Source of the DNA: a virus
Lineage: Duplodnaviria > Caudoviricetes
Direction: 5' to 3' (one strand)
IMG/VR virus record: IMGVR_UViG_3300043432_000484
Location: 32,001 to 96,000 of that record
DNA length: 64,000 nucleotides
Each line of letters starts with the position of its first letter. The first letter of the stretch is position 1. The position numbers and the translations under genes were made by a program. The notes beneath the pieces were generated by a model that did not search any database, was not told where the DNA came from, and worked only from the letters and a program-made list of their open reading frames with translations. Below are positions 29,711 through 60,084 of the stretch, piece by piece.

Positions 29711-29950
29711 TTATTCTTCCTCTAGCACCAGACTCGTGATCTTGGCGTACAGCCAAGGGATCTCAGGATCTCCCAAATTCTGCAGGATCCCATCTCTGGA
29801 CAACTGCTTGACGTAGATTCGATCTGACTTGGTCCTACTGAATCGTACGAATCTGAACCGCCTCCGGATAGGATCGCCCGCTCCATGCTCTGGGTAGCAA
29901 CAGGTGAACTCGCGCCCTTCTAGGCCGACAAACTCTCCACGCCTAGCCAT
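29711..29950 (-). CDS. Hypothetical protein
   Basis: ORF tiling. Confidence 0.5.
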   Translation of the reverse strand: MARRGEFVGLEGREFTCCYPEHGAGDPIRRRFRFVRFSRTKSDRIYVKQLSRDGILQNLGDPEIPWLYAKITSLVLEEE

Positions 29951-30549
29951 CAGCTCCCCAGCCCCTCCCCGACTTCCCAACGAATGAAGCGGCGGATGGT
30001 GACATTCTCACCCAACTTGGCCCCAAGTTCAATGCGGAGTTGGTCGATTGTCTTCCCCGGCTGGGTGACCGATTCCTGATCCAAGAGACAGGCCTCCTGG
30101 TACCACTTGTTCATCTTACCATCCAGGATTTTCTCCAACGCAACCCCAGTCTTACCAGCCGGGACTTGGTCCATGAAGATTGAACGCTGGTGCAGATTGA
30201 TGGCTTCCCCCACATCGGTACGGCTCAGGAAGCGTGGGGTGGAGGCCACAATGTGCATCGCCACTTCATCGCAGAACGCCTGGAACTCCGAGGTTCGGGC
30301 AGAGAAATCAGTCTCGCAATTGACCTCCACCACCGCGACCTTGGCGCCGCCGCCATGAACGTAGGTCACGACTTTACCCTCGGTTGCGATGCGTCCGGCG
30401 CGCTCCGTAGCCTTGACCATCCCGCGCTTCTGGAGCAGCTCCAACGCCTTCTCCACGTCGCCCGCGGACTCTTCCAAAGCCTTGCGGCAAGCGTCCATAC
30501 CCACACCCGAGCGGGTGCGCACTTCCTTGATTTGTTCCAGTGTGGCCAT
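29950..30549 (-). CDS. tsf: Translation elongation factor Ts (short form)
   Basis: IKEVRTRSGVGMDACRKAL, ATEG, EVNCETDF, LGENVTIRRFIRW. Confidence 0.95.
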   Translation of the reverse strand: MATLEQIKEVRTRSGVGMDACRKALEESAGDVEKALELLQKRGMVKATERAGRIATEGKVVTYVHGGGAKVAVVEVNCETDFSARTSEFQAFCDEVAMHIVASTPRFLSRTDVGEAINLHQRSIFMDQVPAGKTGVALEKILDGKMNKWYQEACLLDQESVTQPGKTIDQLRIELGAKLGENVTIRRFIRWEVGEGLGS

Positions 30550-30825: not shown

Positions 30826-32490
30826 TTACCAGCTCTTGGACTTCTGCTTGATCTTGCGCTTGGCCTTGGGCTTCTTTTCCGCCACAGGGGCCTCAGGAAC
30901 GGTGGTTACCGTGACCACTGGAGGAGTGGCCGGAGCAACATGCATGGCCCCACCGCCAATGAAGATCGGGTTGAGCCCCGTGTTTCCGCCAGTCCAAATG
31001 GCCTGGTTGCTCGGCCAAGAGGGCTGACCGAAAGGGTTGTTCGGATCCACGATCCAACTTGCCCCTGCTTGCCCGCCACCGATCTGCGTTGGACCTACAG
31101 TCGAAACATCTTGGATGGGTAGAGCGTCCCCAGTCCTCACGTCGTCTACCGAAAATGCGTCCGCAACGTTGGTTTGAAAAGAGTTGTTCATCGCGACGCC
31201 CAAGGATTCCAAATCCACGGCAGCGTCGGCAGAGTATGTCCCGCCAAGCCCCCGAGTTGCGCCGCGGGTAACGCTTGCACGATAGGAAGCGCTCCCCACA
31301 TAGGCATCTCTGGAACTCAAGCTGTTCCCAAGGTTGCTGGACACTGCACTCAGGCCGACCAGCCCACGTGTTTTGACACTGTCCGAGAACGTGTTCATAA
31401 CGGACGATGCCCTCATATAGTCGCCGCGCTTGGCGTGCTCATCCGCCTCCAATTGCGCTCTGACCATCTGGGCGATACCCACGATCTGATCCAGCTCCGG
31501 GTCGATCTTGGTTTGTTCTTCCCCGGACTTGACGAACTGGACCTTGGCTTTGACCTCTAGGGTCTTGCGCTCGCGCTTCAAGTTCGCGTCCATCACGTCA
31601 TATCCGATCGTGACATCGAGTACGTTCACCTCTCGGGGGAATGCGTTCTTCTGTGCTTGCAGTTTGATCGCGAGAACCAGGTGTCGAGTTTCCTCAGAAA
31701 GGATCTCTGGAAGCTTGATGGTAACATCCCCCATGTCCTCCTCATCGGCGTCCACATCTGTCACCACTTGAGTGATGCTGTGCCCTGCCAATGGGGATAC
31801 CTCGACCGTGATGTTTGTGGCGTAGGTTGAGCACAGGCCGCCCAACTCTTTGCCGAAAGCCGACAAGGCATCATCAGGGTTGCTGATGAATGCGTAGTTG
31901 CCGTTTCCGCCGTTGGCCAACCCAAGTAGCAACTCCTGGTTAGCCCCCAACCCGTAACCAAAGGCGCTCAAGCTTGCGGTTCCAATGTTGGGCTTGACCA
32001 ATGCCAGGATGTCGGGGGTCTTGACGGCGGGACCGCGGTTGGCTTCCCCATCCGTGAAGAGTATCACTCGCGTGATCACCTCATGAGCCAAATCCATCTT
32101 GTTGGCTACTTCGAATCCCATCAAGAGCGCGCTAGCGATGTTGGTGGCGTTTCCAACGTCCAACCCGAGGATCTTCCGCTTGAGTTCATCTTTGGCTTCT
32201 TTGGTGCAACGCACCGGGCGCTGCACCAGCTCAGCATCAGACGAGAAGGTGATGAGCCCGCAGTGATCCTGAGGAGTCATGTGCTCGATCAGCTTGATCA
32301 AGCTCTTCTTGGCGTACTCTAGCTTGGCCCCCATCATAGATGGGGAGACGTCCACCAGAGGAACAATGCAGAGAGGGGGTCGCTTGACTTCCTCTTGAAT
32401 GGAAGGGGCCGTGAAGCTCACGACCAGGTGGGTGTCCTTCTCCTGATCGAAGCGGACTTTGTTAGATGTGAGTTGTGCTTTAATTTCCAT
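30826..32490 (-). CDS. VWA domain protein (YfbK-like)
   Basis: MIDAS DVSPSM, ATNI, LFTDGEAN, GNYAFI. Confidence 0.88.
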   Translation of the reverse strand: MEIKAQLTSNKVRFDQEKDTHLVVSFTAPSIQEEVKRPPLCIVPLVDVSPSMMGAKLEYAKKSLIKLIEHMTPQDHCGLITFSSDAELVQRPVRCTKEAKDELKRKILGLDVGNATNIASALLMGFEVANKMDLAHEVITRVILFTDGEANRGPAVKTPDILALVKPNIGTASLSAFGYGLGANQELLLGLANGGNGNYAFISNPDDALSAFGKELGGLCSTYATNITVEVSPLAGHSITQVVTDVDADEEDMGDVTIKLPEILSEETRHLVLAIKLQAQKNAFPREVNVLDVTIGYDVMDANLKRERKTLEVKAKVQFVKSGEEQTKIDPELDQIVGIAQMVRAQLEADEHAKRGDYMRASSVMNTFSDSVKTRGLVGLSAVSSNLGNSLSSRDAYVGSASYRASVTRGATRGLGGTYSADAAVDLESLGVAMNNSFQTNVADAFSVDDVRTGDALPIQDVSTVGPTQIGGGQAGASWIVDPNNPFGQPSWPSNQAIWTGGNTGLNPIFIGGGAMHVAPATPPVVTVTTVPEAPVAEKKPKAKRKIKQKSKSW

Positions 32491-33497: not shown

Positions 33498-33630
33498 TTT
33501 TACCTCCAGGTTACAGTAACTACAGTGACCCTGGGCGATGCCAGCGTCCTATGTTACCTACCTGGAAGTTTGAAATACCGGACATGAGATGTGGTCCTCG
33601 GTGTACCGAGTATCCGTGAAAGGACACACG

Positions 33631-35955
33631 ATGTCAACCCACTCATACCTGGTTACAAAAGATCTATACCTGGTCACGCAACAGCTGACCCTCACATCTG
33701 CCCCCAAGAAGGTGGTAGAGATGCCTACCAACCATTTCCTAGTGATCGATTGCAGCGGCTCGATGAGTCAAGACCTGCCCAAGATCCGGGAGCAGCTGAA
33801 GCGCAAGCTCCCAAAGCTCCTGAAGGAGCAAGACACAGTCTCGGTCATCTGGTTCAGTGGCCGCGGGGAATTCGGCACCCTGCTGGAAGCCGAGCCCGTG
33901 GCGTCCTTGACGGATCTGCAAAACGTAGAGCGCGCTATCGATCGTTGGCTCAAGCCGGTGGGGCTCACCGGCTTCACCGATCCTCTAAAGGAAGCTACCA
34001 AAGTCGTCGAGCGCGTGGCCAAGGCCCGCAAGGGTAGTGTGTCCAGTCTGTTCTTCATGAGCGATGGCTGTGACAACACGGGGACCCGTTCAGGGATCCT
34101 GCAGGCCATGGAGACCGCGGCTAGCGAGTTCGCCTCCACAACGATCATCGAGTACGGGTACTACGCTGATCGCTCTTTGCTGTCCGCGATGGCGGAGAAA
34201 GCTGGAGGCTGCCACATCTTCGCAGAAGACTTCGATCGCTACTCACCGACGTTCGAAGCCGCGATGCAGAAGAAGCAGACCGGCGCCAAGAAAGTGGGGG
34301 TCACGATCCAGGGAGACCCAATCGGTGGCTTCGCGTTCTCACTCGGAGATGGGGAGCTGACCACCTATGGCATCGATGCTGGGATGGTGGCTGTTCCCGA
34401 AGACCTCAAAACGCTGGCATACCTGTCCCCTACCCTGATCGGGACATCCAAGGGCAACCTGTCCGATCTGACGTCTCCGGAGTTTGCCTATGCGGCCATC
34501 TCCCTCTTCGCGGTCCGCATGAAGCCTGGGATCGTATACCCTCTCCTAGCAGGCCTCGGGGATGCGTCCCTCATTGACCAGTTCTCCAGCTGCTTCGGCA
34601 AGCAGAAGTACAGTGAGTTCCAGGCCCGCGCACAACGAGCGGCATTCGTCAAAGAAGAGCGCTTCACTGCTGGGCAGGACTTCAATCGAGTCCCCAAAGA
34701 GGATGCGTTCACAGTGCTAGACGCCCTGAACCTGCTGGCCAGCGAAGAGGGCAATAGGGTGCTGCTCGACCACCCAGAGTTCCGCTACAGCCGAATCGGC
34801 CGCGGGCGCATCGATGCCAACGAACAGCTGACCGCTGAAGAGCAAGAAGAGATTCGGGTTCTCAGTGAGGAGCTTGCCACGACCAAGAAAGCAGCTCGGG
34901 TGCAGGAGATCAGCACCCGGATCGCAGCTATCACGGCAAGCAAGCCCAAAGCCCTGAAGTTCGAGGCAGACGCGGCCCCGAACGGCTACCCCATCTCGTC
35001 CCTGACCTTCAATGAGGATCGGCCGAACGTGTCCTTCCTAGTTCGCAAGAGCGGGTCCGTTGACCTTTCCTCACGAACGGACAAGCCAACTCAAACCCCG
35101 GAGGTGTTCCCAACCTTCGTGTTCCGCAACTACGCGGTCATCAAGGACGGTCTGGTCAACATCGACAAGCTGCCTGTGAAGGTTACAGCAGAGACGTGTG
35201 ACAAGATCATGAAACTAGAACTGCGGGGTTGGGTTCAACGCCACACTACTATGTCCACGGACGGCAAAATCGGCCTTACTTTGAATCTCCGTGCCCTACC
35301 GGTGATCAACCGCAAGATGGTAAAAGAGGTCTCGGCAAAGAATTTCTTCGAGACCCAGTACCAGCTCCTTCTGGCCCAAGCCGAACAGAAAGTTCTGAAC
35401 AGCTACGCCAAGGAGTTGCTCCCGTCCAGGAAGTCAGAGGGGTTTGAAGAACGCTACGGCGCCGACGCCGCGCAATGGCTCAAGGAACAGGGGTTCACCG
35501 ACTACTCGGGTTTCTCTCCCAAAGCCGTTGTAGCTGAGTCCACGGACTTCTACATGGGCAAAGAGTTGAAGGTCAGCCTCAAGGGCTACTCCAAGCTACC
35601 AAGTCTCAAAGAGGTCAAAGACCAGATTGCCAAGAAGAAGTTGAACGGTCCAGGTGCACTCATGGCCCCAACCGTGACTCTCGTCGAGGACTTCCTGGCC
35701 AGCGACTTCTACCAGAAGAGCAAGGGCAACTCGGCAACGCTAGAGGTGTGGATCGACGGGCAAGCCAAGGCCGCCAAAGAGAAGGTGCGCAAGCTGATCT
35801 TCCAGATCTCCCAAACCACCTTTGCGCTGGTGGTTGGTCAAACCTGGTTCCAGGAGTTCAGCTCGCTGGATGAGAACAGCCTCACGTTGACACTGCCCGG
35901 CGGAGCAACCGTTGAGTGCAAAGCCGAGATGAAGGAAGTCCAAATTCGCATCTGA
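33631..35955 (+). CDS. Large VWA domain protein
   Basis: MIDAS DCSGSM, FMSDG; RBS AAGGA. Confidence 0.85.
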   Translation: MSTHSYLVTKDLYLVTQQLTLTSAPKKVVEMPTNHFLVIDCSGSMSQDLPKIREQLKRKLPKLLKEQDTVSVIWFSGRGEFGTLLEAEPVASLTDLQNVERAIDRWLKPVGLTGFTDPLKEATKVVERVAKARKGSVSSLFFMSDGCDNTGTRSGILQAMETAASEFASTTIIEYGYYADRSLLSAMAEKAGGCHIFAEDFDRYSPTFEAAMQKKQTGAKKVGVTIQGDPIGGFAFSLGDGELTTYGIDAGMVAVPEDLKTLAYLSPTLIGTSKGNLSDLTSPEFAYAAISLFAVRMKPGIVYPLLAGLGDASLIDQFSSCFGKQKYSEFQARAQRAAFVKEERFTAGQDFNRVPKEDAFTVLDALNLLASEEGNRVLLDHPEFRYSRIGRGRIDANEQLTAEEQEEIRVLSEELATTKKAARVQEISTRIAAITASKPKALKFEADAAPNGYPISSLTFNEDRPNVSFLVRKSGSVDLSSRTDKPTQTPEVFPTFVFRNYAVIKDGLVNIDKLPVKVTAETCDKIMKLELRGWVQRHTTMSTDGKIGLTLNLRALPVINRKMVKEVSAKNFFETQYQLLLAQAEQKVLNSYAKELLPSRKSEGFEERYGADAAQWLKEQGFTDYSGFSPKAVVAESTDFYMGKELKVSLKGYSKLPSLKEVKDQIAKKKLNGPGALMAPTVTLVEDFLASDFYQKSKGNSATLEVWIDGQAKAAKEKVRKLIFQISQTTFALVVGQTWFQEFSSLDENSLTLTLPGGATVECKAEMKEVQIRI

Positions 35956-35962: not shown

Positions 35963-36676
35963 TTGACCACAACGCTGAACTGGTTCATCTACTCTCTGGT
36001 TGATCCCAGAGAGCCAGATCCTCCCCGCTACGTTGGGTGGACTAGAGATCCAGTTCGGCGTTTGCGATCACATTTGAACAACGCCAAAACTGGAAGAGAT
36101 CGCACCAGATGCGGGAATTGGAAGAGATCCTTGTTGTCAACCGGAGTTAAGCCTCAACTTGTACTGCTGGAATCGGGCACAGGTGATGAGTGGAAGGTTG
36201 CTGAAGTGCGTTGGATCCAACATTTCCGTAACCTAGCAGGGGACAAACTTACGAATCACACCCTAGGCGGGGAAGGTTTCACGGCCACCCATACAGAAGA
36301 AACTCGTAAGCGCATGAGCGAAGCTCAAAAGGGTCGTCCTAAGCCCCGCACACCAGAGCACCAGAGCAATTTGGAGGTTGCGCTTAGGAGCCGAGTTTGG
36401 ACGATGGAGTCACGCTTAAAAATGAGCGTTGATAGGACCGGCAGGGTAGAAACGGAAGCCCACAAATCTAAGATCAGCAGAGCGTTGAAAGCCCATCTGG
36501 AGGGTAATCAAGAGGCACGCCAAAAGAGGAGTCAAGGAGCCAGTAAGTTAGCAGGGACACCAGAAGAAAAAAGGATCCGAAGTGAGCGGTTGAAAGCCAT
36601 ATGGGCAGATCCAATCCTGCGAGCCGAAAGAATCAAAGCTCAGATAAACGGCAGGGCACTGAAACAGCCAGGGTAA
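35963..36676 (+). CDS. GIY-YIG homing endonuclease with NUMOD3-like repeats
   Basis: FIYSL...YVGWT...R...H, EVRWI, LTN...GGEG, HTEETRKRMSEAQKG. Confidence 0.88.
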   Translation: MTTTLNWFIYSLVDPREPDPPRYVGWTRDPVRRLRSHLNNAKTGRDRTRCGNWKRSLLSTGVKPQLVLLESGTGDEWKVAEVRWIQHFRNLAGDKLTNHTLGGEGFTATHTEETRKRMSEAQKGRPKPRTPEHQSNLEVALRSRVWTMESRLKMSVDRTGRVETEAHKSKISRALKAHLEGNQEARQKRSQGASKLAGTPEEKRIRSERLKAIWADPILRAERIKAQINGRALKQPG

Positions 36677-37095: not shown

Positions 37096-37641
37096 TCACC
37101 CGAACATCAATTCAAGGTGGGGCACATTCTGCAGCCAGTACCTCCACGATTCAGGCACCGTACGGATGGGCACGGCTGGCATTTGCAGAGGCAAATGCGT
37201 CGGGCGGACTGGCTGCTTCAGCAACCTCATCTTGGCTTGCTCCGGGGTCCTGCCACCCTTCCGAGAGTTGCACGGGATGCAGGAGCTTACGACGTTGGTC
37301 CAGACCGTCTTGCCTCCCTGAGTGCGCGGGATGACGTGGTCGTAGTTCAACTGACGCCTTGGGAACTTGTTCCCGCAGTACTGGCAGGTGAACTTGTCAC
37401 GTGTGAGAACGTTGACGCGGCTGAACTTGACACCCTTCTTGTTCGCGGGGATCGCCGTCTTGATGCGCGCCACGGAGGGGATCTGAAACGAGACGCTCGG
37501 GCTCGACACCTTAGCGTCTGGAGACTCGTGAGACTCCAGGACCTCGATCTCGCCCTCCACCAGCTTGCAGATCGCCTCCTGCCACCCAACTATGCGGTGG
37601 GGTTCCATCCAGGGCGTGAGTAGGAGTGTGTGAAATTGCAT
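37096..37641 (-). CDS. HNH endonuclease (McrA-like)
   Basis: RDKFTCQYCG...DHVIP..GG..VWTNVVSSCIPCNSRK. Confidence 0.92.
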   Translation of the reverse strand: MQFHTLLLTPWMEPHRIVGWQEAICKLVEGEIEVLESHESPDAKVSSPSVSFQIPSVARIKTAIPANKKGVKFSRVNVLTRDKFTCQYCGNKFPRRQLNYDHVIPRTQGGKTVWTNVVSSCIPCNSRKGGRTPEQAKMRLLKQPVRPTHLPLQMPAVPIRTVPESWRYWLQNVPHLELMFG

Positions 37642-38241: not shown

Positions 38242-38868
38242 TTACGGTAAAATCGACAAAGTCAGGATTTGTTCGTGCACGTCCAGGGTGCGAACCTGCA
38301 GGGCTTCCCGATTGTTGTCGTTGAAGATCACGTAATCAGCCACGTCCAGCTTCTTGGCCAACGGGTACTGGGAGGCGATCCGGCTGCGCGCTTCCTCCTC
38401 GGTGATCCCGTTGCGCTTCATGACTCGCGTGGTTTGCAGATCGGGGCTCGCGGCCACCACGATCAGCTTGTCCATCCCAGCATACAACCCCAACTCAACC
38501 AGCAGGGCCGCTTCGTAGAGGATGTATGGGGTAGTGGTATTGCGAGCCTCCTGGACGCGCTCCTCATAGAGCTGCCGGATTCGAGGGTGCGTGATGGCTT
38601 CCAGGGCCTTGCGCGCCGACGGCTCACGAAAGACCAGCGCCCCCAGCTTGGCCCGATCCAAGATGCCTTCGGGGGTAAGGTACTCGGACCCAAATAGCCC
38701 AACCAGCTCCGCCAAACCAGAGGTCCCTGGAGCCACGGCATCCCGAGATAGCTGATCAGCGTCGATTACCGTCACCCCCAAGGAGGTGAAAATCTTGGCG
38801 GTGGCGCTCTTACCTGACGCTATACCTCCGGTGAGCCCAATAACTAGTTTGTGGGATTGGTTAGACAT
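38242..38868 (-). CDS. coaE: Dephospho-CoA kinase
   Basis: IGLTGGIASGKS, IDAD, LDRAKLG..VF, ITHP, RIASQ. Confidence 0.95.
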   Translation of the reverse strand: MSNQSHKLVIGLTGGIASGKSATAKIFTSLGVTVIDADQLSRDAVAPGTSGLAELVGLFGSEYLTPEGILDRAKLGALVFREPSARKALEAITHPRIRQLYEERVQEARNTTTPYILYEAALLVELGLYAGMDKLIVVAASPDLQTTRVMKRNGITEEEARSRIASQYPLAKKLDVADYVIFNDNNREALQVRTLDVHEQILTLSILP

Positions 38869-39679
38869 GAATACCTACATTTACGCCATACTGTACAATG
38901 GTTTGCCGGTTTATGTCGGGAAGACCAAGCAAAAGATACACCGTAGACTGGTAACCCACTGGAGCGACGCAAAGCGAGGAAAAACCCACACGCCCTTTGG
39001 GAGATGGCTAGAAAAGCAAACAGTCAAGCCCGAAATCATTTCCTTAGAGGAAGTGCTGGATGTCTCTGAGTGGCAAGAGCGCGAAAGATTTTGGATCAAG
39101 AGCCTCACTAAACAAGGGCTCAAGCTATTCAATACTCACCCAGGAGGTAATGGAAGCCACACTATTAGTCACCGCTTTCCTGCAGAAGCTATTGAGTTGT
39201 TAGGTAAAATTTCAGATTCCAGAATCGCGGAAATGATCGGGCTCACTCGTGAAGCGGTCCGATATCACCGTACGCAACTTGGGGTTGTTGCCTCGGATGA
39301 CAGATCCAGAATCAAACCACCAGCACCAAGGCCCAAAGGGTACCGTCACGTCAAACGGGTGGAGCTTCCTGAGGAAGCTGTGAAACTTTTGGGGAGAATC
39401 AGTGATCAAAAGATAGCAGAGCAATTCGGGCTAAGTCGGCACATTGTCAAGACGCGCAGAAACGAAATGGGAATCCCAAGGGCGTCAGCCATACACGGGA
39501 GCGCCCATCATTCCTCAAAGCTAAGTGCAGAAGCCATTCTAGATATCCAAGCTAACTACATCAAGGGTTCGGCGGGACATAGATCCAGCAACAGTCTAGG
39601 GCACTTTGCCAGGAAATACTCAGTCCACCCCACTTCCGTTTGGACCGTCGTCAGGAGCTACTTGGAGTCCAAAGAGTAA
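38867..39679 (+). CDS. GIY-YIG homing endonuclease with two HTH repeats
   Basis: YIYAI...YVGKT...R...H, ERFWI, LFN..PGG; repeated LLG(K/R)ISD..IAE..GL. Confidence 0.88.
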   Translation: MNTYIYAILYNGLPVYVGKTKQKIHRRLVTHWSDAKRGKTHTPFGRWLEKQTVKPEIISLEEVLDVSEWQERERFWIKSLTKQGLKLFNTHPGGNGSHTISHRFPAEAIELLGKISDSRIAEMIGLTREAVRYHRTQLGVVASDDRSRIKPPAPRPKGYRHVKRVELPEEAVKLLGRISDQKIAEQFGLSRHIVKTRRNEMGIPRASAIHGSAHHSSKLSAEAILDIQANYIKGSAGHRSSNSLGHFARKYSVHPTSVWTVVRSYLESKE

Positions 39680-40478: not shown

Positions 40479-40520
40479 GATGGCCTCCTACAAAGGCTCA
40501 CCATAGGTGCGCTATTCTTG

Positions 40521-40601
40521 CGTTCCCGGCTGGACTCGAACCAGCATTTGTCTTTCGACCCGGCTTAGGAAGCCGACGCCCATCCTTTGGACCACGGGAA
40601 C
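40521..40601 (-). tRNA. tRNA-Arg(CCT) with extra variable-arm hairpin
   Basis: GTTCCCG/CGGGAAC-G; TCGGC-TTCCTAA-GCCGG; variable GTC-GAAA-GAC; TTCGAGT. Confidence 0.88.
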
Positions 40602-40606: not shown

Positions 40607-40780
40607 TCAGTCGGGTACCACCCTTATAAGGGCCGGCACACATACTTTCGTGGACTCGCCACCGTTCACCGACTCCAACTCCTTGTAGACCCCGCCGCGG
40701 GCTTCACAGGACGTGGATGGCTGGAGTGCCAGAGCGGTAAGCCCCGTGACGATCAAGGCGATTACAATCAAGAGCTTCAT
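40607..40780 (-). CDS. Small secreted/membrane protein (57 aa; not in ORF track)
   Basis: MKLLIVIALIVTGLTALA...two Cys; start overlaps the E1 stop. Confidence 0.55.
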   Translation of the reverse strand: MKLLIVIALIVTGLTALALQPSTSCEARGGVYKELESVNGGESTKVCVPALIRVVPD

Positions 40781-41352
40781 CATGTTCTCATCACTCCGCC
40801 CGGGTGGATTGCGTAGTCAAGCTTCTTGCCCCGGAGCAAGAAATCCTGTGCCGCCTTGGCGATCATGGACGACGCCACAGCGATGAACGGAAGGTGCTCT
40901 CCTCCCTCGCACGTGGCTTGCCCGGCCACGTTCTCTGAGTCGATCACGAAGTTTTCGTCCCAGACCACCCGCCCATATGATCCATCTGCAGCCAAGGCCC
41001 CATGCAAGCACGGAGTCTTGGTGTGCCGCGCAAACGCCTGGACGACCTCCCGGGCCGGCGCGTTGTCGAGGCAATCCAGAAGCAGGTCAGCCCCCGAAAG
41101 GAGCTGGGTAGCATTGTCCGTGGTCAGCCGGTGAGGCACCGCCGTAGGCTTGAGCCCGAACAAGAACCCCATCGACTGCTGCAGCGACTGGGCCTTGTTC
41201 TTGCCCACCCCGGGCTTGCTGTGGAACTGGGCGAGCACGTTCTTTTGCTCAATTCGATCCATGTCGATGAGCTTGAGGTCGGCCTCATTCCTAAGAAACA
41301 AAGCCACATGCGAGCCCAGAGCCCCTACGCCTATGATGGTGACCTTTTTCAT
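40780..41352 (-). CDS. E1/ThiF-family ubiquitin-like activating enzyme (minimal)
   Basis: IIGVGALG, IDMDRIEQKN, KNKA, LLLDCLDN, candidate catalytic Cys in ATCEG. Confidence 0.9.
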   Translation of the reverse strand: MKKVTIIGVGALGSHVALFLRNEADLKLIDMDRIEQKNVLAQFHSKPGVGKNKAQSLQQSMGFLFGLKPTAVPHRLTTDNATQLLSGADLLLDCLDNAPAREVVQAFARHTKTPCLHGALAADGSYGRVVWDENFVIDSENVAGQATCEGGEHLPFIAVASSMIAKAAQDFLLRGKKLDYAIHPGGVMRT

Positions 41353-41510
41353 GTTCCCGAACCCGTCTCCTCCTTCTTATCACAGTTTGGACAGAGAGGG
41401 GGAGGATTCCACTCATCATTGGAAGCCGTCTCGCATTCAACCACCGCGCCACAGCGCTTGCACTTGTAGCGCAGCAGTTGAACCCAGTGCTTCCAACCGG
41501 TGAAGTACAT
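41349..41510 (-). CDS. Small Zn-ribbon protein (53 aa; not in ORF track)
   Basis: MYFTGW...YKCKRCG...LCPNCD; overlaps the Ubl stop and the E1 start. Confidence 0.7.
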   Translation of the reverse strand: MYFTGWKHWVQLLRYKCKRCGAVVECETASNDEWNPPPLCPNCDKKEETGSGT

Positions 41511-41764
41511 CAGCCGTCCAGCTGGCCGCCGAATGGCGTCTTGGGGCGCACCGCGACACGGTTCGGGAGGTCATCCTTTGCCGGGAAGCGATCGACCACG
41601 TAATCCGAGAAGTCAGCCGTCTGGGCATCGATACCCGGGACGTTGCCGTTGAGCACTGCCTCCGCGGCCCAACGCTTGATCTCAGCATCGGTAGCGTCGA
41701 ATGGGATCGGGTCGGTCAAGTCCCCGTTGGACCCCGCGAATGTGACGTTCAGGTTTGCTTCCAT
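41510..41764 (-). CDS. Ubiquitin-like (beta-grasp) protein with short C-terminal extension
   Basis: 84 aa between JAB and E1; ends VAVRPKTPFGG-QLDG; RBS AAGGAG. Confidence 0.72.
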   Translation of the reverse strand: MEANLNVTFAGSNGDLTDPIPFDATDAEIKRWAAEAVLNGNVPGIDAQTADFSDYVVDRFPAKDDLPNRVAVRPKTPFGGQLDG

Positions 41765-42219
41765 GTCTCTTCTCCTTGATTGTCAGAACCCTCAGGCTCT
41801 GCGATTGCCTCTACGCTGGACTGCCAACGTCGAACCATGTGATGGTTGTAGTAGGACTTGCCCCGCAGCTCTCCCATCCACGTGGGCTCATATAGCGCAG
41901 GACCCTTGGCGTAGTCAAGCTTCCCTGGCCCAACCCAGCACAGTTCGATGAACTGATCCTCGCTCGTGATCCACCAGACCAACCGGCGGCCCAATCCAGA
42001 CTCGACGGCCGCGAAAGTGGTCAGGTCCGTGTCCGAAGGGCCGGGCTCTCCTGACCCCGGATGACTATGAGCAAAGCCCAGAATGTTGGCGCGGTTCTCC
42101 CAGATGACTTCCCAAAGCTCTCGGGAGTCAGGGAGCGCACCACCACTGCGATCCACCGGCAGATGCCAGTAGATCGGCTCGCAGCCCATTCCAACCAAAA
42201 CTCCAGCTTCAATGCTCAT
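41749..42219 (-). CDS. JAB/MPN+ metalloisopeptidase
   Basis: N-terminal E, HSHP-GSGEPG-PS-DT-D JAMM motif. Confidence 0.88.
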   Translation of the reverse strand: MSIEAGVLVGMGCEPIYWHLPVDRSGGALPDSRELWEVIWENRANILGFAHSHPGSGEPGPSDTDLTTFAAVESGLGRRLVWWITSEDQFIELCWVGPGKLDYAKGPALYEPTWMGELRGKSYYNHHMVRRWQSSVEAIAEPEGSDNQGEETWKQT

Positions 42220-42452
42220 GGCGTTTCTTCTTCCCTAACCGGATACCGATCACCGAAGATCTTGATACACAGTTGCCCAATCTCTTCGTAGGTCAAATCT
42301 CCTGCATTGGTTTTGAGGATAGCCCCCATCACATCTTCGCGTTCGTGAATAGCTAAGCGATACAGAGCCTCAGAAAGGGACTTACGCTCCTTCTCGGTGA
42401 GCTGCTTCGCACGCTCGGCCTCGAAAGCTTCATGCATACCTGGGTGGCTCAT
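42216..42452 (-). CDS. Hypothetical protein
   Basis: Translationally coupled ORF. Confidence 0.6.
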   Translation of the reverse strand: MSHPGMHEAFEAERAKQLTEKERKSLSEALYRLAIHEREDVMGAILKTNAGDLTYEEIGQLCIKIFGDRYPVREEETP

Positions 42453-42748
42453 GGTTCCTCCAACTCGCTGATGACATCCGACAGATCCAACCCAAAGCGT
42501 TCTCCAGTTCTCCGCAGATCCTCAGCAAATCGTGCTTTGGAATGCAAATTGCCCCATTGATCGCTGTACCAACCGGGATGAGCGTTGTCCGCTGGAGCCG
42601 AACCCTCGGAACGATCGTAATCTGAGTCCTCGGACCACCCGCAGCTGGGGCACCCCCACGGGCCATAGATGATCCCCACCCCGACATCCACGGAGTCCTG
42701 TGTGCAATGATCATTGCACTTGGGGCAGTTCAATCTGCCCTCACGCAA
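42449..42748 (-). CDS. Zn-ribbon protein
   Basis: CPKC...VDVGVG...CPSCGW. Confidence 0.6.
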   Translation of the reverse strand: MREGRLNCPKCNDHCTQDSVDVGVGIIYGPWGCPSCGWSEDSDYDRSEGSAPADNAHPGWYSDQWGNLHSKARFAEDLRRTGERFGLDLSDVISELEEP

Positions 42749-42954
42749 TGGAAGAGAACGTCCCGGTCCTCTTCATGAGTGACGAAGCGTCCGTGGCAAT
42801 GCTCCGCCATCAGTTCCCGGGCCTCTTCCATGGCCGGGACGTATGCCCCGGACAGGTGAACCAAACCCCCAAAAGAATCGGTTCGAACGGGGCTGGCTCC
42901 GGAGCTGCACGCCCCAAGGACTAGGGCCAAAATGAGTGCTGTGATGGTTTTCAT
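42730..42954 (-). CDS. Small lipoprotein
   Basis: Lipobox LGAC after hydrophobic leader; RBS GAGGAG. Confidence 0.65.
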   Translation of the reverse strand: MKTITALILALVLGACSSGASPVRTDSFGGLVHLSGAYVPAMEEARELMAEHCHGRFVTHEEDRDVLFHCVRAD

Positions 42955-42964
42955 AGGTAGCTCC

Positions 42965-43927
42965 TCAATCCACGTGCCTGTACACAACCAACTTCCCATC
43001 GCGATCGGCTTCCATGATCACCGAGGGCAGGCTTTCCAGAGTGAACCACGTGTCCCCTTTGGTGCCATACGCGAAATCGTCATCATCCCCGTGTGCGGAG
43101 AGGCAGATCCCAGAATCGATGATCCTTAGCGTGTTCTTGTCACACGTGCACTCGAAACGGCGACGCAGGACCCGGAATCTCACCACCATCTCGTTCCCGC
43201 GATGAGCGGCCCGATGATCCAGGTACTCAGCACCCCCTAGCGCCAACGCGGCGCGAGCTGCCGCTTCAAAGTCCACAGCGGCAATGGCGCGACGCCCGGC
43301 GCCGTCACCTAGGCGACCCATCATTTCTCGGCGAAGCTCTTCCTTGCGGCGTGCTTCCTCCTCCAAGCGCAGCTGTTCGGTTAGCTCCGCTCGGCGACGA
43401 TCCGCTTCGATCCTCTGCCAGCGCGCCATCCGGAATGCAGCGTCCAATGCTGGGACCACACCCTTTACGTGACGAACAGAATCCAGCGCGTCCAAATAGG
43501 CCGTCAGTACCCCATCCTCGGCCCCCAGAGGCATCTCCTGCTGGATAAACACCAAGGACCCATCCTCACTGCAACGCCCGGCTGAAACCAGCACAAAGCG
43601 ATCCAGCCCCGGATCAATCAGATTCACGCGCTCCGACTGAAACGCAATCTTGATCGGGTCCGGGTTCACGTCCACATCGCTCGCAATGATGCGATCCCCT
43701 ACCAGGTAGCCCACCATCTTGTGGCGCAGGTTGGCTGGCTCCGGATCGCTGGCTTCCAGATATCGTGCCTTGCGGCCGTCAAGAGTGAACTTGGCCCAAC
43801 CGTGCTCCGCCGGAAGGGGTCCTTCGAGCGTCCACCCTCTGGGACCAGATCGAAGAGACCTACCTCCAAGCCACGGCAGCACGATCGTGCTGGGCTCACG
43901 GTTCTGAAGTAGGCCTCTCCAATCCAT
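42965..43927 (-). CDS. Protein of the Ubl operon; candidate divergent E2-like conjugase
   Basis: Central coiled coil; C-terminal domain FECTCD...IIDSGICL resembles the E2 G-x-ICL active site; operon context. Confidence 0.5.
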   Translation of the reverse strand: MDWRGLLQNREPSTIVLPWLGGRSLRSGPRGWTLEGPLPAEHGWAKFTLDGRKARYLEASDPEPANLRHKMVGYLVGDRIIASDVDVNPDPIKIAFQSERVNLIDPGLDRFVLVSAGRCSEDGSLVFIQQEMPLGAEDGVLTAYLDALDSVRHVKGVVPALDAAFRMARWQRIEADRRRAELTEQLRLEEEARRKEELRREMMGRLGDGAGRRAIAAVDFEAAARAALALGGAEYLDHRAAHRGNEMVVRFRVLRRRFECTCDKNTLRIIDSGICLSAHGDDDDFAYGTKGDTWFTLESLPSVIMEADRDGKLVVYRHVD

Positions 43928-44630
43928 TGTCGCTCCTGTCCAAACGCTCAAGCCTAGCATGCCATGATTCAAGAGTCTCGCGTGGCAAACGTCTACGAGC
44001 CATCTTCAGTCGAACTTCAGCACTAATCCCAGCCTTTTGCCGTTTGATTCTCTCTTCTCGCTCTTCCTCAGAATATTTAGACCATGCAGCTTTCAACGCC
44101 ACTCTAGTCTTCTCCCTAATCTCTGGGTCTGAATGCTGAATCAAGGCCCTGGCCTTGCGACGTTCTCTCTCCACTGTAGAGTTGAAAGCAATCTTCGTAG
44201 CCCTCTTGTGTCGGGCCTTCACATCAGGTTTAGCCATAGCAGTTTTGACACTGGAACTGTTTCTGGCCTTCACCTCAGGCCGATTCTGAGCAACTACCCC
44301 AGAATTAGATATCTTGCGCTTAGTGTCTTCCGATGGCCGTCCAGCAGCGCCCCCACTTTTCAAGTTGTAGCCCACAGGGAACAAAGAGGTTGCCACCCAT
44401 CGTATCTCCAAAGAGTCCAGCTCCTCTTTGGAAGAAGCCCCTTCCACAACCTCGAACTGGAAGTTGTCTTTCCCGTACTTGGCTATGGCATTACGCAATG
44501 CGTGACAATGACTATCCGAACGAAAATGGTGAACCCACCTCTCCGATGGGTTCACCGTCTGCCCGTGATATAATTTGTCATTCACAAGGCATCGTATTCT
44601 GTACACAATTCCGTAAGTCACACCGCCCAA
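43896..44630 (-). CDS. GIY-YIG homing endonuclease
   Basis: GIVYRI...YHGQT...R, KYGKDNF, EIRWV, GYNL..GG. Confidence 0.9.
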   Translation of the reverse strand: MGGVTYGIVYRIRCLVNDKLYHGQTVNPSERWVHHFRSDSHCHALRNAIAKYGKDNFQFEVVEGASSKEELDSLEIRWVATSLFPVGYNLKSGGAAGRPSEDTKRKISNSGVVAQNRPEVKARNSSSVKTAMAKPDVKARHKRATKIAFNSTVERERRKARALIQHSDPEIREKTRVALKAAWSKYSEEEREERIKRQKAGISAEVRLKMARRRLPRETLESWHARLERLDRSDNGLERPTSEP

Positions 44631-46531
44631 GCTGGTTTGGAGAGGAGCTTGGTGCCCATGATGGTGTCGATCAACGTGACCCGCGGGGTAGCCATGAACT
44701 TAGCTGTGGTGGTGCCCACCGGTGTCGATGCGATCAACGCACTGATGGTGCGGGGGATCGCATAAGGGTCTTGGAAGATGCGCTCATCGATCATGAAGCA
44801 GGGGATTCCCAGCTCCGCTGCCGTAGTTGTGACCGCAGTGTGCGCGTGCCCCATGTTGCCAGGCACGTAGAGGAACCCGAATGCGATCGGGTTGAGACCC
44901 GACTCACGGACGGCTGCCGTGAACGGTGCGTCTTGCTCGTCACCCACGATGATGAAGATCGCATCCTCACCTTCCTTGGGCTTGTACTTCTTCAGAGCCT
45001 TTACACCCTGAGCGTGGCTCGTCCCACCACCGGCATTGATGCCCTTGAAGGCTTGTTCGATGCCAGCTGCCGACTGATGCTTGATCACGACCTCACGCCC
45101 TGTCTGGCTGAACACCGAGACGTGGAGCTGATCCGCCGGGAACCCCTGCAGGAACTTCGCCAAGTACTCCTTGGCCTTCACGATCGCCCCGTCCATCGAG
45201 CCCGAGATGTCGACCATGAAGTAGATGCGAAGGTTCTTGACAACCTCTGCGACAGCCGTCTTGATGGCGTTGTCCGCGGCATCCTTGAGCTGTTCCTGAG
45301 TGGCCTTGGAGCGCACGCGAGTCGCGATGTTCGCAGCACGCATGTCCTCAGCTGTCGCGATAGCCCGGTCCCACCGGTGCTTGATCTCTTGCACCTCCAA
45401 GAGCCCAAGGTCCTCCAACGTCGGAGTCGCGATGATCAGGTCCTTGTCCGACAACGAACCAGCATCGATGGCCACGGCCACGATCGCCCGCGTCAGACCC
45501 ACGCCCTTGGGCAGCAAGCCCACGATGCGCTTGAAGTTCGGCTTGTCCCTTTGGATGAGCTGGCAGATCTGCTCCTCCGAGAGACCTTCCCACGATTCGG
45601 CGGCTTTCACGGCCTCACCGATCGCCATCTGCCGATGCCCGTCATCCGCTTGGATTTGCGGCCAACGAAGTGTCTCGAAGAACTTTTGCGTGTTGGGCTT
45701 GTAGCCCACGCGACGCGCCAGCTCGATCACGGTGCGGCGGAAGCCGGCCTTGACGAGACCCTCCAACATCCGGGGGTTCTCCTCCCGGTAACGCAGCCAC
45801 TTGTCCACGGCCTTGGTCCAACGACCCAAGAACGGGTTGCGCGCCGACTTGCCGAACCCGAGCTGGCGATTGATCTCAGCCACTCCCGGCAAGCGCAGCA
45901 CGTCGTGCACCCGAAGCAGGAGCTTTGGGTTGAAGTCGGTAGCCTTGGAACCAGCGGCCTTCGCCCCCGGCTTCTCCAGGTCCTTGCGACCAAGCAACAG
46001 CATGGCCTCACCGACGTCGCGGTAGTCCTCATCGTGAAACACGAGCTTCCCACCGTCGATGACCGGATCACCCTTGCGCGACTGAACAAGCAAGAATGCA
46101 GCGAGGATCACCTTCAAGTCTCGGTGCTCCAAGCCAAACGCGTAGCTGGCCCACTTGGCGGCGAACTCGTTGTCGAGCTTCCACACTTCCGCGACCTGCT
46201 TGTACATCCACACCGCGACTTCCGGGTAGATGCCAGCGGGCTGGTAGCGACCGATCACGCGATTGCCTTCCTTGACGCGACCGTCGTCCTTCAGCTTGCC
46301 GAGCTTGATCTTGGTGGATTGCTTGCCGGTCTTGCGCAGCTCGTAGACAACCTTGTCTCCCTCTTCGAGCACGTGAGTGACAGGGAGCCACTTCACTCCG
46401 ATCGTGGAGCCGGCGTCGGGGACCACGATGCCGGCTCTCCCATGATGAGCATGGTCCGAATACGCCAGAACTGTCTGAAGTATTCTCTCCGCCGGCCCAA
46501 GATTTTCATTCACATTTGCCATAGTCGCCAT
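44618..46531 (-). CDS. Divergent Ro60/TROVE-like protein with C-terminal VWA domain
   Basis: TROVE-like segments DNEFAAKWASYA..HRDLKVILAAFLL, GRWTKAVDKWL, LARRVGYKP, SWEGLS; VWA FMVDISGSM, GGTS, IVGDEQ. Confidence 0.7.
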   Translation of the reverse strand: MATMANVNENLGPAERILQTVLAYSDHAHHGRAGIVVPDAGSTIGVKWLPVTHVLEEGDKVVYELRKTGKQSTKIKLGKLKDDGRVKEGNRVIGRYQPAGIYPEVAVWMYKQVAEVWKLDNEFAAKWASYAFGLEHRDLKVILAAFLLVQSRKGDPVIDGGKLVFHDEDYRDVGEAMLLLGRKDLEKPGAKAAGSKATDFNPKLLLRVHDVLRLPGVAEINRQLGFGKSARNPFLGRWTKAVDKWLRYREENPRMLEGLVKAGFRRTVIELARRVGYKPNTQKFFETLRWPQIQADDGHRQMAIGEAVKAAESWEGLSEEQICQLIQRDKPNFKRIVGLLPKGVGLTRAIVAVAIDAGSLSDKDLIIATPTLEDLGLLEVQEIKHRWDRAIATAEDMRAANIATRVRSKATQEQLKDAADNAIKTAVAEVVKNLRIYFMVDISGSMDGAIVKAKEYLAKFLQGFPADQLHVSVFSQTGREVVIKHQSAAGIEQAFKGINAGGGTSHAQGVKALKKYKPKEGEDAIFIIVGDEQDAPFTAAVRESGLNPIAFGFLYVPGNMGHAHTAVTTTAAELGIPCFMIDERIFQDPYAIPRTISALIASTPVGTTTAKFMATPRVTLIDTIMGTKLLSKPAWAV

Positions 46532-48332: not shown

Positions 48333-49520
48333 TCACGCTGAAATGATGTTCAGTTCCTGCTTCACCGAGGACTGCTTGGCCAAAAGGTCAAGTCTGACGT
48401 TCTCTCCACAGGCAGACGCCGTGTCACTCACGGCCATACGCTTTAGGTTGCGAGCGGCATTTACATCGCGGTCGTGCACGCAGCCACATTCCTGGCACGT
48501 CCACTCACGCTCCGACAGGCTAAGCTCCGGCTTGACCGCGTCGCATTCCGAGCATGTCTTGGAGCTGGGGAACCACTGGCTGGCCCATACGACCTTGCAG
48601 CCGTATAGCGCCGCTTTGTAGGTGAGCTGGCGCTTGAACTCGTAGAAGCCCACGTCCGCAATCGCTCTGGAGAGCTTGCGGTTCTTGAGCATGCCTTTGA
48701 CGTTCAGGGTCTCGGCCCCGATGACGCCATAGGTCTTGCACAGGAACGTGGTGAGCTTGTGGAGTGCGTCGTGTCGGATGCACCTGATTCGGTAGTGCAA
48801 CCTCGCAACCTTCATACGCGCCTTCATGCGGTTCGCGGAACCTTTCCGCTTCCTGGACAACGACCGCTGTAGACGCTTCAACTTAGTGAGATTCCTCCGG
48901 AGTGCTTTCGGGTTCTCAAACACCGTCCCGTCCGACAGGGTGGCGAGACGCTTCAGCCCAAGGTCACAGCCTACCGCCGCTTGGTTTTCGCGGATGGGCG
49001 GGATGTGGTTTACCTCGACCTGAAAGCTAGCGAACCACCGGTCGGCAGTGCGGCTAACGACACACGAAACGATGCGACCTTGCAGGCGCAGCGCCTCTTT
49101 CATTCTTACGGTTCCGAGCCGGGGCAAGGTGACGGTCTGACCGTTCACCTCCACCGCGTGGCTCAGCTTGTCCTTGGGGCCGTTGTCGGCTCGGAAGCTG
49201 TCATGACGGCCCTTCTTGTGCGGCTTCGGATACTTGGCGGTGCCTTTGAAGAAGCGCTTGAACGCTTGGCCAAGATTCTTGATGGCTTGCTGCGGTGCGC
49301 ACTTCGTGACTTCGGCCATCCAGGGCCACTCGGATCCTTTGGCCGCGTTCAGCTGGCGGCGTAGTGCTGCCTCGCTGGGCTTCTCGCCCGCTTTATACTG
49401 GCGGCGCCACTCGGACAAGGCCCAGTTGTAGGCAAACCTTGCCGTCCCGGCAGCGCGAGCACAGTACGTGCGCTGCTTGTCCGTTAGGTCAAGCTCCACC
49501 TTGTGGGCCAGCTGAATCAC
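48333..49520 (-). CDS. tnpB: TnpB RNA-guided nuclease
   Basis: HTH ARFAYNWAL, RuvC-I VGCDLG, RuvC-II AETLNV, FPSSKTCSEC...CQECG..HDRDVNAARN. Confidence 0.95.
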   Translation of the reverse strand: MIQLAHKVELDLTDKQRTYCARAAGTARFAYNWALSEWRRQYKAGEKPSEAALRRQLNAAKGSEWPWMAEVTKCAPQQAIKNLGQAFKRFFKGTAKYPKPHKKGRHDSFRADNGPKDKLSHAVEVNGQTVTLPRLGTVRMKEALRLQGRIVSCVVSRTADRWFASFQVEVNHIPPIRENQAAVGCDLGLKRLATLSDGTVFENPKALRRNLTKLKRLQRSLSRKRKGSANRMKARMKVARLHYRIRCIRHDALHKLTTFLCKTYGVIGAETLNVKGMLKNRKLSRAIADVGFYEFKRQLTYKAALYGCKVVWASQWFPSSKTCSECDAVKPELSLSEREWTCQECGCVHDRDVNAARNLKRMAVSDTASACGENVRLDLLAKQSSVKQELNIISA

Positions 49521-50146
49521 TCGGCGGCCTCCACGGTGTCCAGCTTCTTCTTGCGTCGCCCAGCCGACCTACGTCCGTAGACTTTGGCCGAGAAGCTGGC
49601 GATGAGGCTCATCATGTCCTCAACGATTTCCGCCTCGTAGCTCTTGGGCAGCACGTCCTCCATCCACTCGACTTCCACGCCGTGGCTCTGAAGGAACTTG
49701 ACGAAGATGGTTGAGTTGAAGCGTGTGAACCTGTCCTTGTGCTCGATGACCACACGGCCAATCTCGCCCGCGATGGCAAGGTCGAACAGACGGTGGAGCT
49801 TGGGCCGGTTGTCGTTCATCCCGGATCCGACTTCCTCCAGGATGTGCTGGACGTGGTAGCCACGCTTCACGCAATACTCAAGGACGCGGCCTTTCTGGCG
49901 CTCCAGGTCGCCTTTCTGCTTCTGTTCGTTGGAGCTGACTCGACAGTAGGCAGCCACCACAGTGGACTTGGCGGCAAGCTTCCGGGCCTTGCCTTGGAAT
50001 GCCTCCAAAGCCTCGACCAGGTAGCGCCGCTTGCCGCCCGGAGTCCGGACAGCTACAAGCTTACCACCTTCGTCCCAACGGCGAAGCGTAGTGACCGAAC
50101 AGCCAAGCATTTCAGCAGCTTTCGATATTGAGACCAAGCCAGTCAT
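49517..50146 (-). CDS. tnpA: IS607 TnpA serine recombinase
   Basis: MerR-like HTH, RTPGGKRRY, YCRVSS, EVGSG, HKDRFTR, FSAKVYGRRS. Confidence 0.95.
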   Translation of the reverse strand: MTGLVSISKAAEMLGCSVTTLRRWDEGGKLVAVRTPGGKRRYLVEALEAFQGKARKLAAKSTVVAAYCRVSSNEQKQKGDLERQKGRVLEYCVKRGYHVQHILEEVGSGMNDNRPKLHRLFDLAIAGEIGRVVIEHKDRFTRFNSTIFVKFLQSHGVEVEWMEDVLPKSYEAEIVEDMMSLIASFSAKVYGRRSAGRRKKKLDTVEAAE

Positions 50147-59728: not shown

Positions 59729-60084
59729 GGTGGAAACGGGTGGAGTCGAACCACCGTCCAGAAACGATCCGAGACGAGTACTACGAACGTATCCTCTTGT
59801 TGCTACGTGGCTCGGTTCACCAAGAGGCGGCTACCCGGCCACGTTCCGACTGTTTCTAGTGAGTGTCGGTCGGAAACACCTGACTCACCGAACCCTTGTA
59901 CTTTCTCAGCCCTCCGAGCCGCGTCCCCCAAGGGTAGGGAAGCTCGAAGTTTAGCGCCTCAGGCCGCTACGGCAAAACCGTTGTCGTTGGCTTTTGTATC
60001 GTCCAGACAGGATTTACGTGGTCACCTGGACCCACGGTTCGCACTCCATCACTTCAGCGTCCCTGTCGAAACCGGGGCGTTCCC
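59728..60084 (-). ncRNA. ssrA: tmRNA, tag (A)ANDNGFAVAA*
   Basis: 5' GGGAACG...GGTTTCGAC, G3:U70 acceptor, T arm plus ACCA, tag ORF 59991-59959. Confidence 0.95.

Follow-up and report, generated by a model that had tools for sequence, protein, structure and literature searches.

The 64-kb window analysed here (positions 32,001 to 96,000 of the IMG/VR virus record IMGVR_UViG_3300043432_000484; coordinates below are those of the window) carries on its minus strand a gene cassette in which a protein resembling Ro60 is combined with the components of a ubiquitin-like pathway. Five genes of the cassette are conserved, encoding a Ro60-like von Willebrand factor A (vWA) protein, RoL; a cysteine-bearing protein, p335; a metallopeptidase, JAB; a putative ubiquitin-like precursor, Ubl; and a minimal ThiF-type adenylyltransferase, E1. 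We conclude that this cassette is real, deeply conserved and undescribed. A preliminary description of the sequence had read the run as a phage operon coupling a TROVE-like vWA protein to a ubiquitin-like conjugation module, a reading that is borne out in part. All the open reading frames (ORFs) that it listed are present on the minus strand, and their coupling is indeed tight, adjacent genes overlapping by 1-35 nt throughout. The run, and the tRNA gene just downstream of it, are as follows:

44618..46531, minus strand: RoL, Ro60-like vWA protein, 637 residues (Pfam VWA_2, Foldseek)
43896..44630, minus strand: GIY-YIG homing endonuclease (Pfam GIY-YIG, E 1.3e-12; phrog_314 homing endonuclease, E 1.9e-29)
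42965..43927, minus strand: p335, 320 residues from M16 of ORF 42965-43972, SGICL motif (start placed from homologue starts)
42730..42999, minus strand: small ORF, 89 residues, variable filler (no family match)
42449..42748, minus strand: small Zn-ribbon ORF, 99 residues, accessory (phrog_6115, E 1.5e-6)
42216..42452, minus strand: small ORF, 78 residues, variable filler (no family match)
41749..42219, minus strand: JAB/JAMM metallopeptidase, 156 residues (Prok-JAB, E 2.3e-5)
41510..41764, minus strand: putative Ubl precursor, 84 residues, ending PFGG-QLDG (conserved C-terminus, E1 complex model)
41349..41510, minus strand: Zn-ribbon ORF, 53 residues, CxxC...CxxC, accessory (weak Zn_ribbon_8 match)
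40780..41352, minus strand: minimal E1/ThiF adenylyltransferase, 190 residues, ATCEG motif (ThiF, E 3.9e-21)
40520..40601, minus strand: tRNA-Arg(CCT), just downstream of E1 (ARAGORN, Rfam)

Related loci were fetched with RoL or E1 as bait, and the genes were located in them by tblastn and hidden Markov model (HMM) searches. When all ORFs of these loci were clustered, RoL, p335, JAB, Ubl and E1 were the only conserved families. In the nearest phage clade, the order RoL-p335-JAB-Ubl-E1 is kept in 11 of the 13 loci with at least 9 kb of flank, and in the remaining two E1 lies just past the end of the flank; JAB stands between p335 and Ubl in all near-clade loci. Across huge phages the gene order is kept at 45-83% identity, RoL itself being 54-83% identical across the near clade. 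More than 1456 homologues of RoL were found; the contigs that carry these homologues (>1400) reach 660 kb, and they cover at least two huge-phage lineages as well as cultured Archangium species. The preliminary description would have given up its reading had the TROVE-like gene failed to co-occur with E1, JAB and Ubl elsewhere. The opposite is clearly the case: the pairing recurs, and the vWA protein is tied to the E1/JAB/Ubl set in a fixed manner across loci.

The set is also found in bacteria. A scan of one genome per species yielded 64 loci, mostly in Myxococcota assemblies, and all four partner genes of RoL were present at 22 of the 36 loci from bacterial assemblies. In cultured Archangium gephyra, A. 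violaceum and A. lansingense, the complete chromosomes carry the five genes at about 38-40% identity; their annotation goes no further than a VWA protein, a ThiF family adenylyltransferase and, for the other three, hypothetical proteins. Genes for acyl-CoA oxidase, hybrid histidine kinase and DUF1684 surround them there, and none of the neighbours is a phage gene. Because the set sits in this ordinary chromosomal context, the cassette, which the preliminary description had presented as phage-borne, is not specific to phages. Five Archangium-like genomes have no E1 within 10 kb of RoL-p335-JAB, and all five keep an orthologous E1 elsewhere in the genome, in one case 1.7 Mb away. In the chromosome of Archangium gephyra SDU49 (locus L089), about 6.5 kb of unannotated genes and a DUF1684 protein (13187-19739 of that locus) split RoL-p335-JAB from Ubl-E1. 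In a Leptonemataceae chromosome (locus L061), a tRNA-Arg(TCT) gene lies between the RoL and p335 homologues, at 12421-12492.

Weak matches of an exhaustive profile search led to a further phage clade, far more distant than the first. Its RoL proteins have 500-550 residues and match the RoL HMM at E 1e-14 to 1e-33. Among 10 loci, HMM searches detected a p335-like gene in five and a same-strand E1 in eight; an ORF with the JAMM motif was found in all six loci read by eye. Directly upstream of RoL, 5 of the 10 loci have a small ORF ending in -AG. Comparison of these ORFs with the near-clade Ubl by hhalign gave P 0.007, one of ten shuffles scoring higher, and their possible homology to Ubl is suggestive only.

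The triad of E1, JAB and Ubl precursor recognised in the preliminary description was borne out by the ThiF match, an invariant JAMM site and an invariant glycine at the C-terminus of Ubl. Among 12 aligned E1 sequences, G8-x-G10-x-x-G13, D30, D93-C-L-D96 (the DCLDN motif) and T147-C148-E149 are invariant. Sequence and predicted structure thus place E1 in the ThiF superfamily (PF00899), with its Rossmann GxGxxG loop, its DxxD(N) motif and, as predicted, a cysteine near the adenylation site. By E-value, the best matches of E1 are to ThiF and MoeB models, and the PADLOC E1-E2 models match the Rossmann part. The two CxxC zinc pairs of MoeB/ThiF are absent from all 12 sequences, and E1 has no rhodanese domain. 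JAB scores 24.7 bits against Prok-JAB, just below the 25-bit cut-off, and in 12 homologues E4, H51-x-H53, S62 and D65 are invariant, which amounts to a complete JAMM metal site. An apparent fusion of JAB and Ubl at locus L014 was rejected, two stop codons lying between the genes. In the Ubl alignment, RPKTPFG is invariant; the core of our Ubl ends at F78-G79 and is followed by a GQLDG tail. Three homologues stop at FG, many stop at FGG, and others have tails of up to about 60 residues. With an invariant FG end and variable tails, this pattern suggests that Ubl is a precursor trimmed to its reactive glycine. Elsewhere in Ubl, E35 is invariant, and D15, D18 and D58 are nearly so.

Modelling of the E1-Ubl complex, which the preliminary description had proposed as a check, gave an ipSAE (interaction prediction score from aligned errors) of 0.79 for Ubl residues 1-79, against 0.00 for the best control. 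The mark set for this score is reached by 58 of 80 solved complexes and by 2 of 110 mismatched pairs. Different runs shared at least 57% of contacts, and the predicted local distance difference test score (pLDDT) of the partners was at least 88. In the model, the Ubl tail (73-79) contacts E1 residues 8-13, 94-98 and 118-128, that is, the GxGxxG loop and the DCLDN motif among them. G79 touches E1 residues 12 and 120 in the adenylation pocket, and E1 residues 146-148, including Cys148, are at the predicted interface. Since complexes of the ThiF-ThiS type have already been solved, this pass shows the likeness of the predicted pair to known E1-Ubl pairs, and not binding of this particular copy. 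The Ubl contacts (6/8, 54/56/58/60, 64/66, 69/71) alternate as strands would, residues 22-40 being off the interface; a beta-grasp fold of Ubl may be inferred solely from this docking to E1.

RoL was divided into three domains: beta at the N-terminus (about 28-97), helical in the middle (about 103-431) and, at 434-602, vWA with an intact adhesion site dependent on metal ions (MIDAS). Its AlphaFold2 model has a pLDDT of 81, Pfam VWA_2 matches residues 437-529, and the MIDAS residues (DxSxS...T...D: D441, S443, S445, T504, D531) are invariant in 30 homologues. The top 10 Foldseek matches in PDB are all Ro60/TROVE proteins, the Ro60 of Thermus phage phiLo among them (E 4e-8 to 4e-6, 519-557 columns, template modelling (TM) score only 0.2-0.3), and the matches to Ro60 by Foldseek and VIA come with a low TM score or a high root-mean-square deviation. 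BFVD neighbours include Ro-like, TROVE and DUF2828 proteins. When RoL was aligned by hhalign with five canonical TROVE proteins, the probability was 96.8% (E 2e-10, residues 318-536). As modelled, RoL appears to have the layout of Ro60, a helical domain and then a MIDAS vWA domain in co-linear order, with a low TM score and a weak signal from the helical domain alone. An exhaustive profile search with the N-terminal domain gave 203 matches. The window encodes two further vWA proteins (30826-32490, 554 residues; 33589-35955, 788 residues), in which the vWA domain is N-terminal and the architecture unrelated to that of RoL.

The start of p335 was moved to M16 because its homologues, more than 1200 in number, have 313-320 residues and start there. 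None of them, nor p335 itself, belongs to a Pfam family. The AlphaFold2 model (pLDDT 86) begins with two beta-barrels (1-145), continues with a long helix (159-207) and ends in an alpha/beta domain. In a deep alignment reaching down to 15-20% identity, only G232, G273, C275, D292, S299 and R317 are invariant, and G273-x-C275 is kept across the near, bacterial and distant phage homologues (15-54% identity). C275 is the sole universally conserved cysteine: the distant clade lacks C260, C262 and H279, and a Zn site formed by C260, C262, C275 and H279 was for this reason rejected as a general feature. As the other cysteines drop out of the deep alignment, C275 is a strong candidate for a catalytic or carrier residue. 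No HPN motif lies upstream of it. In the C-terminal domain, a helix, four strands, the Cys loop and a further helix are predicted to follow one another, an order that a minimal UBC core could have, although this does not demonstrate such a core.

The phage copies of the module lie in RNA-rich surroundings. In 20 of 23 related phage loci, tRNA genes are present within the fetched flanks, often as whole arrays and mostly on the strand of the module, which stands at the edge of the phage tRNA/transfer-messenger RNA (tmRNA) region. A gene for RtcB is found at 28544-29710 of the window, and in two relatives within a few kb of the module. The tmRNA gene (59728-60084) encodes the tag ANDNGFAVAA, and an odd tRNA-like gene (63116-63195), which ARAGORN could not type, has a weak mascRNA-like match in Rfam (E 0.2). 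RtcB and EF-Ts (29950-30549) are both on the strand of the module, and a LAGLIDADG endonuclease gene (27735-28526) adjoins that for RtcB.

The other ORFs of the run lie outside the conserved set. At the RoL-p335 junction, a GIY-YIG gene is otherwise found only in loci L007 and L008, RoL being directly joined to p335 in the others; as a member of a homing endonuclease family present at this junction in just two other loci, it is a mobile insertion and stands outside the module. Three GIY-YIG genes and one HNH gene fall within 9 kb (35963-36676, 37096-37641, 38786-39679, 43896-44630), and the HNH family recurs in seven related loci. The small ORFs, included in the operon by the preliminary description, did not hold up as parts of a conserved module. 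The 89-residue ORF is not conserved and has no family match in Pfam or PHROG scans; read from an internal Met, it would have a lipoprotein-like signal (LVLGAC). The 78-residue ORF has neither a homologue in related loci nor a family match in the Pfam scan. The 99-residue Zn-ribbon ORF has its only counterpart, among the loci compared, in L008. The Zn-ribbon between Ubl and E1, with which it is translationally coupled, had likewise been counted as a member of the set; this 53-residue ORF is retained only in L016. A Zn-ribbon ORF of some kind occurs inside 9 of 54 modules, at about three times the density of the flanks, and it was rejected as a core part.

The window is part of a 132.7-kb record whose completeness is 28% according to CheckV. 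Relatives with the same genes measure 376-536 kb, two of them with direct terminal repeats, and the record is therefore a fragment of a huge phage. In the window, ARAGORN and Rfam detected 25 tRNA genes and the tmRNA; RtcB, EF-Ts, Cpn60, ribonucleotide reductase, an NAD-dependent ligase and a RecD2-like helicase are also encoded, together with many homing endonucleases. An IS607-type pair occupies 48333-50146: a serine-recombinase TnpA with a MerR helix-turn-helix (49517-50146) and a TnpB (48333-49520) made up of OrfB_IS605 and a Cas12f-like TNB domain. A DndB-like protein, of the DNA-sulfur modification-associated family, is encoded on the plus strand at 26540-27730. The preliminary statement that no thiamine or molybdopterin biosynthesis gene is nearby agrees with the Pfam scan of the flanking ORFs, where none was found.

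We give roughly an even chance to the explanation that the locus is a five-gene module built around the activation of a ubiquitin-like protein. Its opening steps, the processing and activation of Ubl, we regard as well supported: Ubl would be made with a disposable C-terminal tail, which JAB would trim, thus exposing the invariant Gly79, and the minimal ThiF-type E1 would then bind Ubl, take its tail into the adenylation pocket and adenylate Gly79, Cys148 standing beside the pocket. Activated Ubl may next be transferred covalently within the complex that the module forms, to one of its proteins. E1 could donate it directly, as happens in archaeal SAMP and Thermus TtuB systems, which have no E2, or the transfer could go by way of Cys275 of p335; JAB may also reverse the linkage. 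RoL and p335, the latter with its two OB-like barrels, coiled coil and Cys domain, could form the working platform. Given the tRNA/tmRNA setting and the nearby RtcB in several genomes, this platform would probably act on RNA. Ubl might tag or switch it, and the MIDAS site is a plausible dock for an acidic residue of Ubl or p335. A more specific version, which we hold tentatively as a possibility, is that of a Ubl cascade dedicated to an RNA-surveillance particle and common to huge phages and myxobacteria: Ubl would go from E1 to Cys275 of p335, which would represent a novel, non-UBC class of carrier, and then to a Ro60-like ring, to be attached there or docked at the MIDAS, the ring handling phage tRNAs or tRNA-mimic RNAs.

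Several observations weigh against this explanation. All that follows adenylation is inferred, as are an E2 role for p335, the identity of the covalent target and the connection with RNA; E1, JAB and a tailed Ubl are also what describes sulfur-carrier systems. Pfam TROVE (PF05731) does not match RoL at E 0.1, nor anything at E 10 in a six-frame search of the window's own record; nothing exceeded the cut-off in five related genomes, and distant full-length relatives of RoL are likewise without a match. Against PDB sequences, phmmer and the family profile of RoL gave weak vWA matches only, the Ro60 chains being unreached. When the helical part of RoL alone was aligned with that of TROVE, hhalign gave P 0.075, barely above column shuffles, and this comparison was not counted. 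The label 'TROVE-like' of the preliminary description is thus retained at the level of fold and architecture; it does not extend to a Pfam TROVE match, and the profile signal is mostly in the vWA part. Since Ro60 proteins are the structural neighbours of RoL and yet Pfam TROVE never matches, we consider RoL to be Ro60-like in architecture and probably homologous to Ro60, but not a demonstrated member of the TROVE family. The SGICL protein, p335, was compared with E2 enzymes. No E2 was detected in it by Pfam, NCBIfam or PADLOC, including the weak matches of 10 diverse members, and hhalign of its C-terminal domain with 15 Prok-E2_B domains gave a probability of 0.16%. Foldseek and VIA returned no E2 either, their lists being filled by the N-terminal barrels, with the C-terminal domain barely covered. 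Its Cys275 is nevertheless kept across very distant homologues. Ubl has no hhalign similarity to ThiS/MoaD and belongs to no Pfam family. Over all ORFs of the run, Pfam, PHROG, NCBIfam and PADLOC yielded no family of TROVE, E2 or Ubl type. On the RNA side, no match to Rfam YrlA/Y RNA was found in window positions 40000-64000 at E values up to 1, and there are no tRNA genes near the Archangium copies.

The same genes might instead serve sulfur transfer: E1 would adenylate Ubl, a host persulfide would convert it to a thiocarboxylate, and the sulfur would end up in a small molecule or in a tRNA thionucleoside, with JAB confined to trimming the precursor. The low E-values of the ThiF and MoeB matches of E1 fit this scheme, as do the conserved E1 cysteine, which suits an acyl-persulfide, the location of the phage modules in tRNA arrays, and the combination of a tailed Ubl with a JAMM partner, known from QbsE/QbsD and CysO/Mec+. 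However, PP-loop thiolase and rhodanese are absent from four near-complete relatives (376-536 kb), only one of five genomes encodes a cysteine desulfurase, and no sulfur-acceptor enzyme is found among the five conserved genes. Because host enzymes could still supply the missing steps, the lack of PP-loop and rhodanese genes weakens this explanation and does no more. It also leaves RoL and p335, the two best-conserved partners, without a role, and Ubl is without the profile similarity to ThiS/MoaD that a sulfur carrier would suggest. Moreover, the candidate Ubls of the distant clade end at the glycine and have no tail to trim, yet a JAMM ORF is present in all six loci read by eye, two of which have such a Ubl. 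Overall we consider sulfur transfer unlikely. We find it decidedly less probable that Ubl is a non-covalent ligand of the RoL MIDAS, as the UBL of Rsa4/Ytm1 is for the Rea1 MIDAS, with E1 and JAB setting the state of its C-terminus and no transfer taking place. The MIDAS of RoL and E35 of Ubl are invariant, D15, D18 and D58 are nearly so, the vWA structural neighbours include the Rea1-MIDAS/Rsa4-UBL structure (6qta), and in the distant clade a candidate Ubl adjoins RoL. If no covalent step followed, there would nevertheless be little reason for an E1 that consumes ATP and has an invariant cysteine at the Ubl tail.

Two other roles would place the module in conflict or in virion assembly. Phage defence is the role of every bacterial Ubl conjugation system characterised so far (PMC10557695, PMC11601596, PMC10097602), bacteria and phages have the module in common, and its E1 matches PADLOC E1-E2 models, so that a captured host defence of the Bil/CBASS/Bub type, or a phage counter-defence tagging host proteins, could be imagined. 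We judge this quite improbable: PADLOC gives nothing for RoL, p335 or Ubl, there is no recognisable E2 or effector gene, the identity of RoL across the near phage clade (54-83%) looks like that of a housekeeping gene rather than of an arms race, and the Archangium setting is not a defence island. An assembly or chaperone function, suggested by the lambda proteins I (Ubl) and K (JAB), which act in tail assembly, and by MoxR-vWA chaperones, seems hardly credible. Ubl-JAB pairs do act in tail assembly (PMC1779556), vWA chaperones occur in jumbo phages (PMC7824862), and JAB weakly matches phrog_5556 'tail protein' (E 3e-4). However, the phage copies stand in the tRNA region, away from structural genes, the Archangium copies have genes for acyl-CoA oxidase and histidine kinases around them and none of phage type, and the conserved neighbours include no MoxR gene.

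To our knowledge, prokaryotic ubiquitin-like systems have so far been known from sulfur transfer, archaeal sampylation and antiphage defence. The wiring found here is different: an E1, a JAMM peptidase and a putatively tailed Ubl have two fixed companions, a Ro60-like MIDAS protein and a new protein in which a single cysteine is invariant, and no E2 is recognisable. The preliminary remark that no system with this pairing has been described agrees with full-text literature searches, in which none was found, including in a 2006 survey of prokaryotic Ubls, a comparative survey of jumbo phages and the paper on the Ro60 of Thermus phage phiLo. The last mentions no link to ubiquitin, ThiF or JAB (PMC12135203). 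If the link to RNA handling is true, this would be the first connection of Ro60-type RNA surveillance with ubiquitin-like chemistry, and a gene set that ranks among the best conserved of the unknown ones in huge phages would gain a function. Should Ubl be a sulfur carrier instead, the Ubl family and its partner proteins would still be new. Thanks to the Archangium copies, the system can be tested in a bacterium that is culturable and non-pathogenic.

The SAMP and TtuB systems comprise a small Ubl with a C-terminal glycine, a ThiF-type E1 with a catalytic cysteine and a JAMM peptidase, and they have no canonical E2. These E2-less prokaryotic systems (archaeal SAMP/UbaA/HvJAMM1 and Thermus TtuB/TtuC; PMC4443979, PMC2948915) resemble the cassette in all these respects, its Ubl being Gly-ended as predicted, its E1 having a cysteine, and no canonical E2 being present next to its JAMM peptidase. 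Unlike theirs, the Ubl of the cassette shows no similarity to ThiS/MoaD and is usually tailed, its E1 is minimal (190 residues) and has neither Zn pairs nor a rhodanese, and the two obligate partners, RoL and p335, have no counterpart there. In QbsE/QbsD and CysO/Mec+, the residues past the reactive glycine of the Ubl are removed by a JAMM enzyme before adenylation by E1. The extra residues after the putative reactive glycine and the JAMM partner are shared with the cassette, whereas no sulfur-acceptor, rhodanese or PP-loop gene is found in the module or in the complete relatives.

The combination of E1, Ubl and peptidase is also that of Bil (BilABCD), CBASS Cap2/Cap3 and Bub (PMC10557695, PMC10097602, PMC11601596), and the precursor processing predicted here resembles the cleavage of BubAB by BubCD. 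In contrast to these systems, the cassette has no detectable E2 domain, fused or separate, only the E1 part matching the PADLOC E1-E2 models; it is phage-borne or chromosomal, it includes a Ro60-like vWA protein and a partner with OB, coiled-coil and Cys parts, and it has no defence context. The tail proteins I (Ubl) and K (JAB with NlpC/P60) of lambda and T1 (PMC1779556) likewise set a phage Ubl with a conserved C-terminal glycine beside a JAB; those pairs are without an E1 and lie among tail genes, whereas the cassette has an E1, lies in tRNA arrays and is also present in bacterial chromosomes. The Rea1 (Mdn1) MIDAS binds the UBL of Rsa4/Ytm1 (PDB 6qta); these eukaryotic UBLs are domains rather than free proteins, no E1 activates them, and a MIDAS-Ubl contact in the cassette is hypothetical. 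Compared with the Ro60/Rsr-Y RNA particles (PMC12135203; PDB 9l5y, 1yvp, 2nvo), RoL differs in having no Pfam TROVE match, a low TM score, an extra N-terminal beta domain (in the near clade) and no Rfam Y RNA. These particles nevertheless provide its best full-length structural neighbours, with the same succession of a helical domain and a MIDAS vWA domain, and the tRNA-rich, RtcB-containing surroundings of the cassette recall the rsr-yrlBA-rtcBA arrangement.

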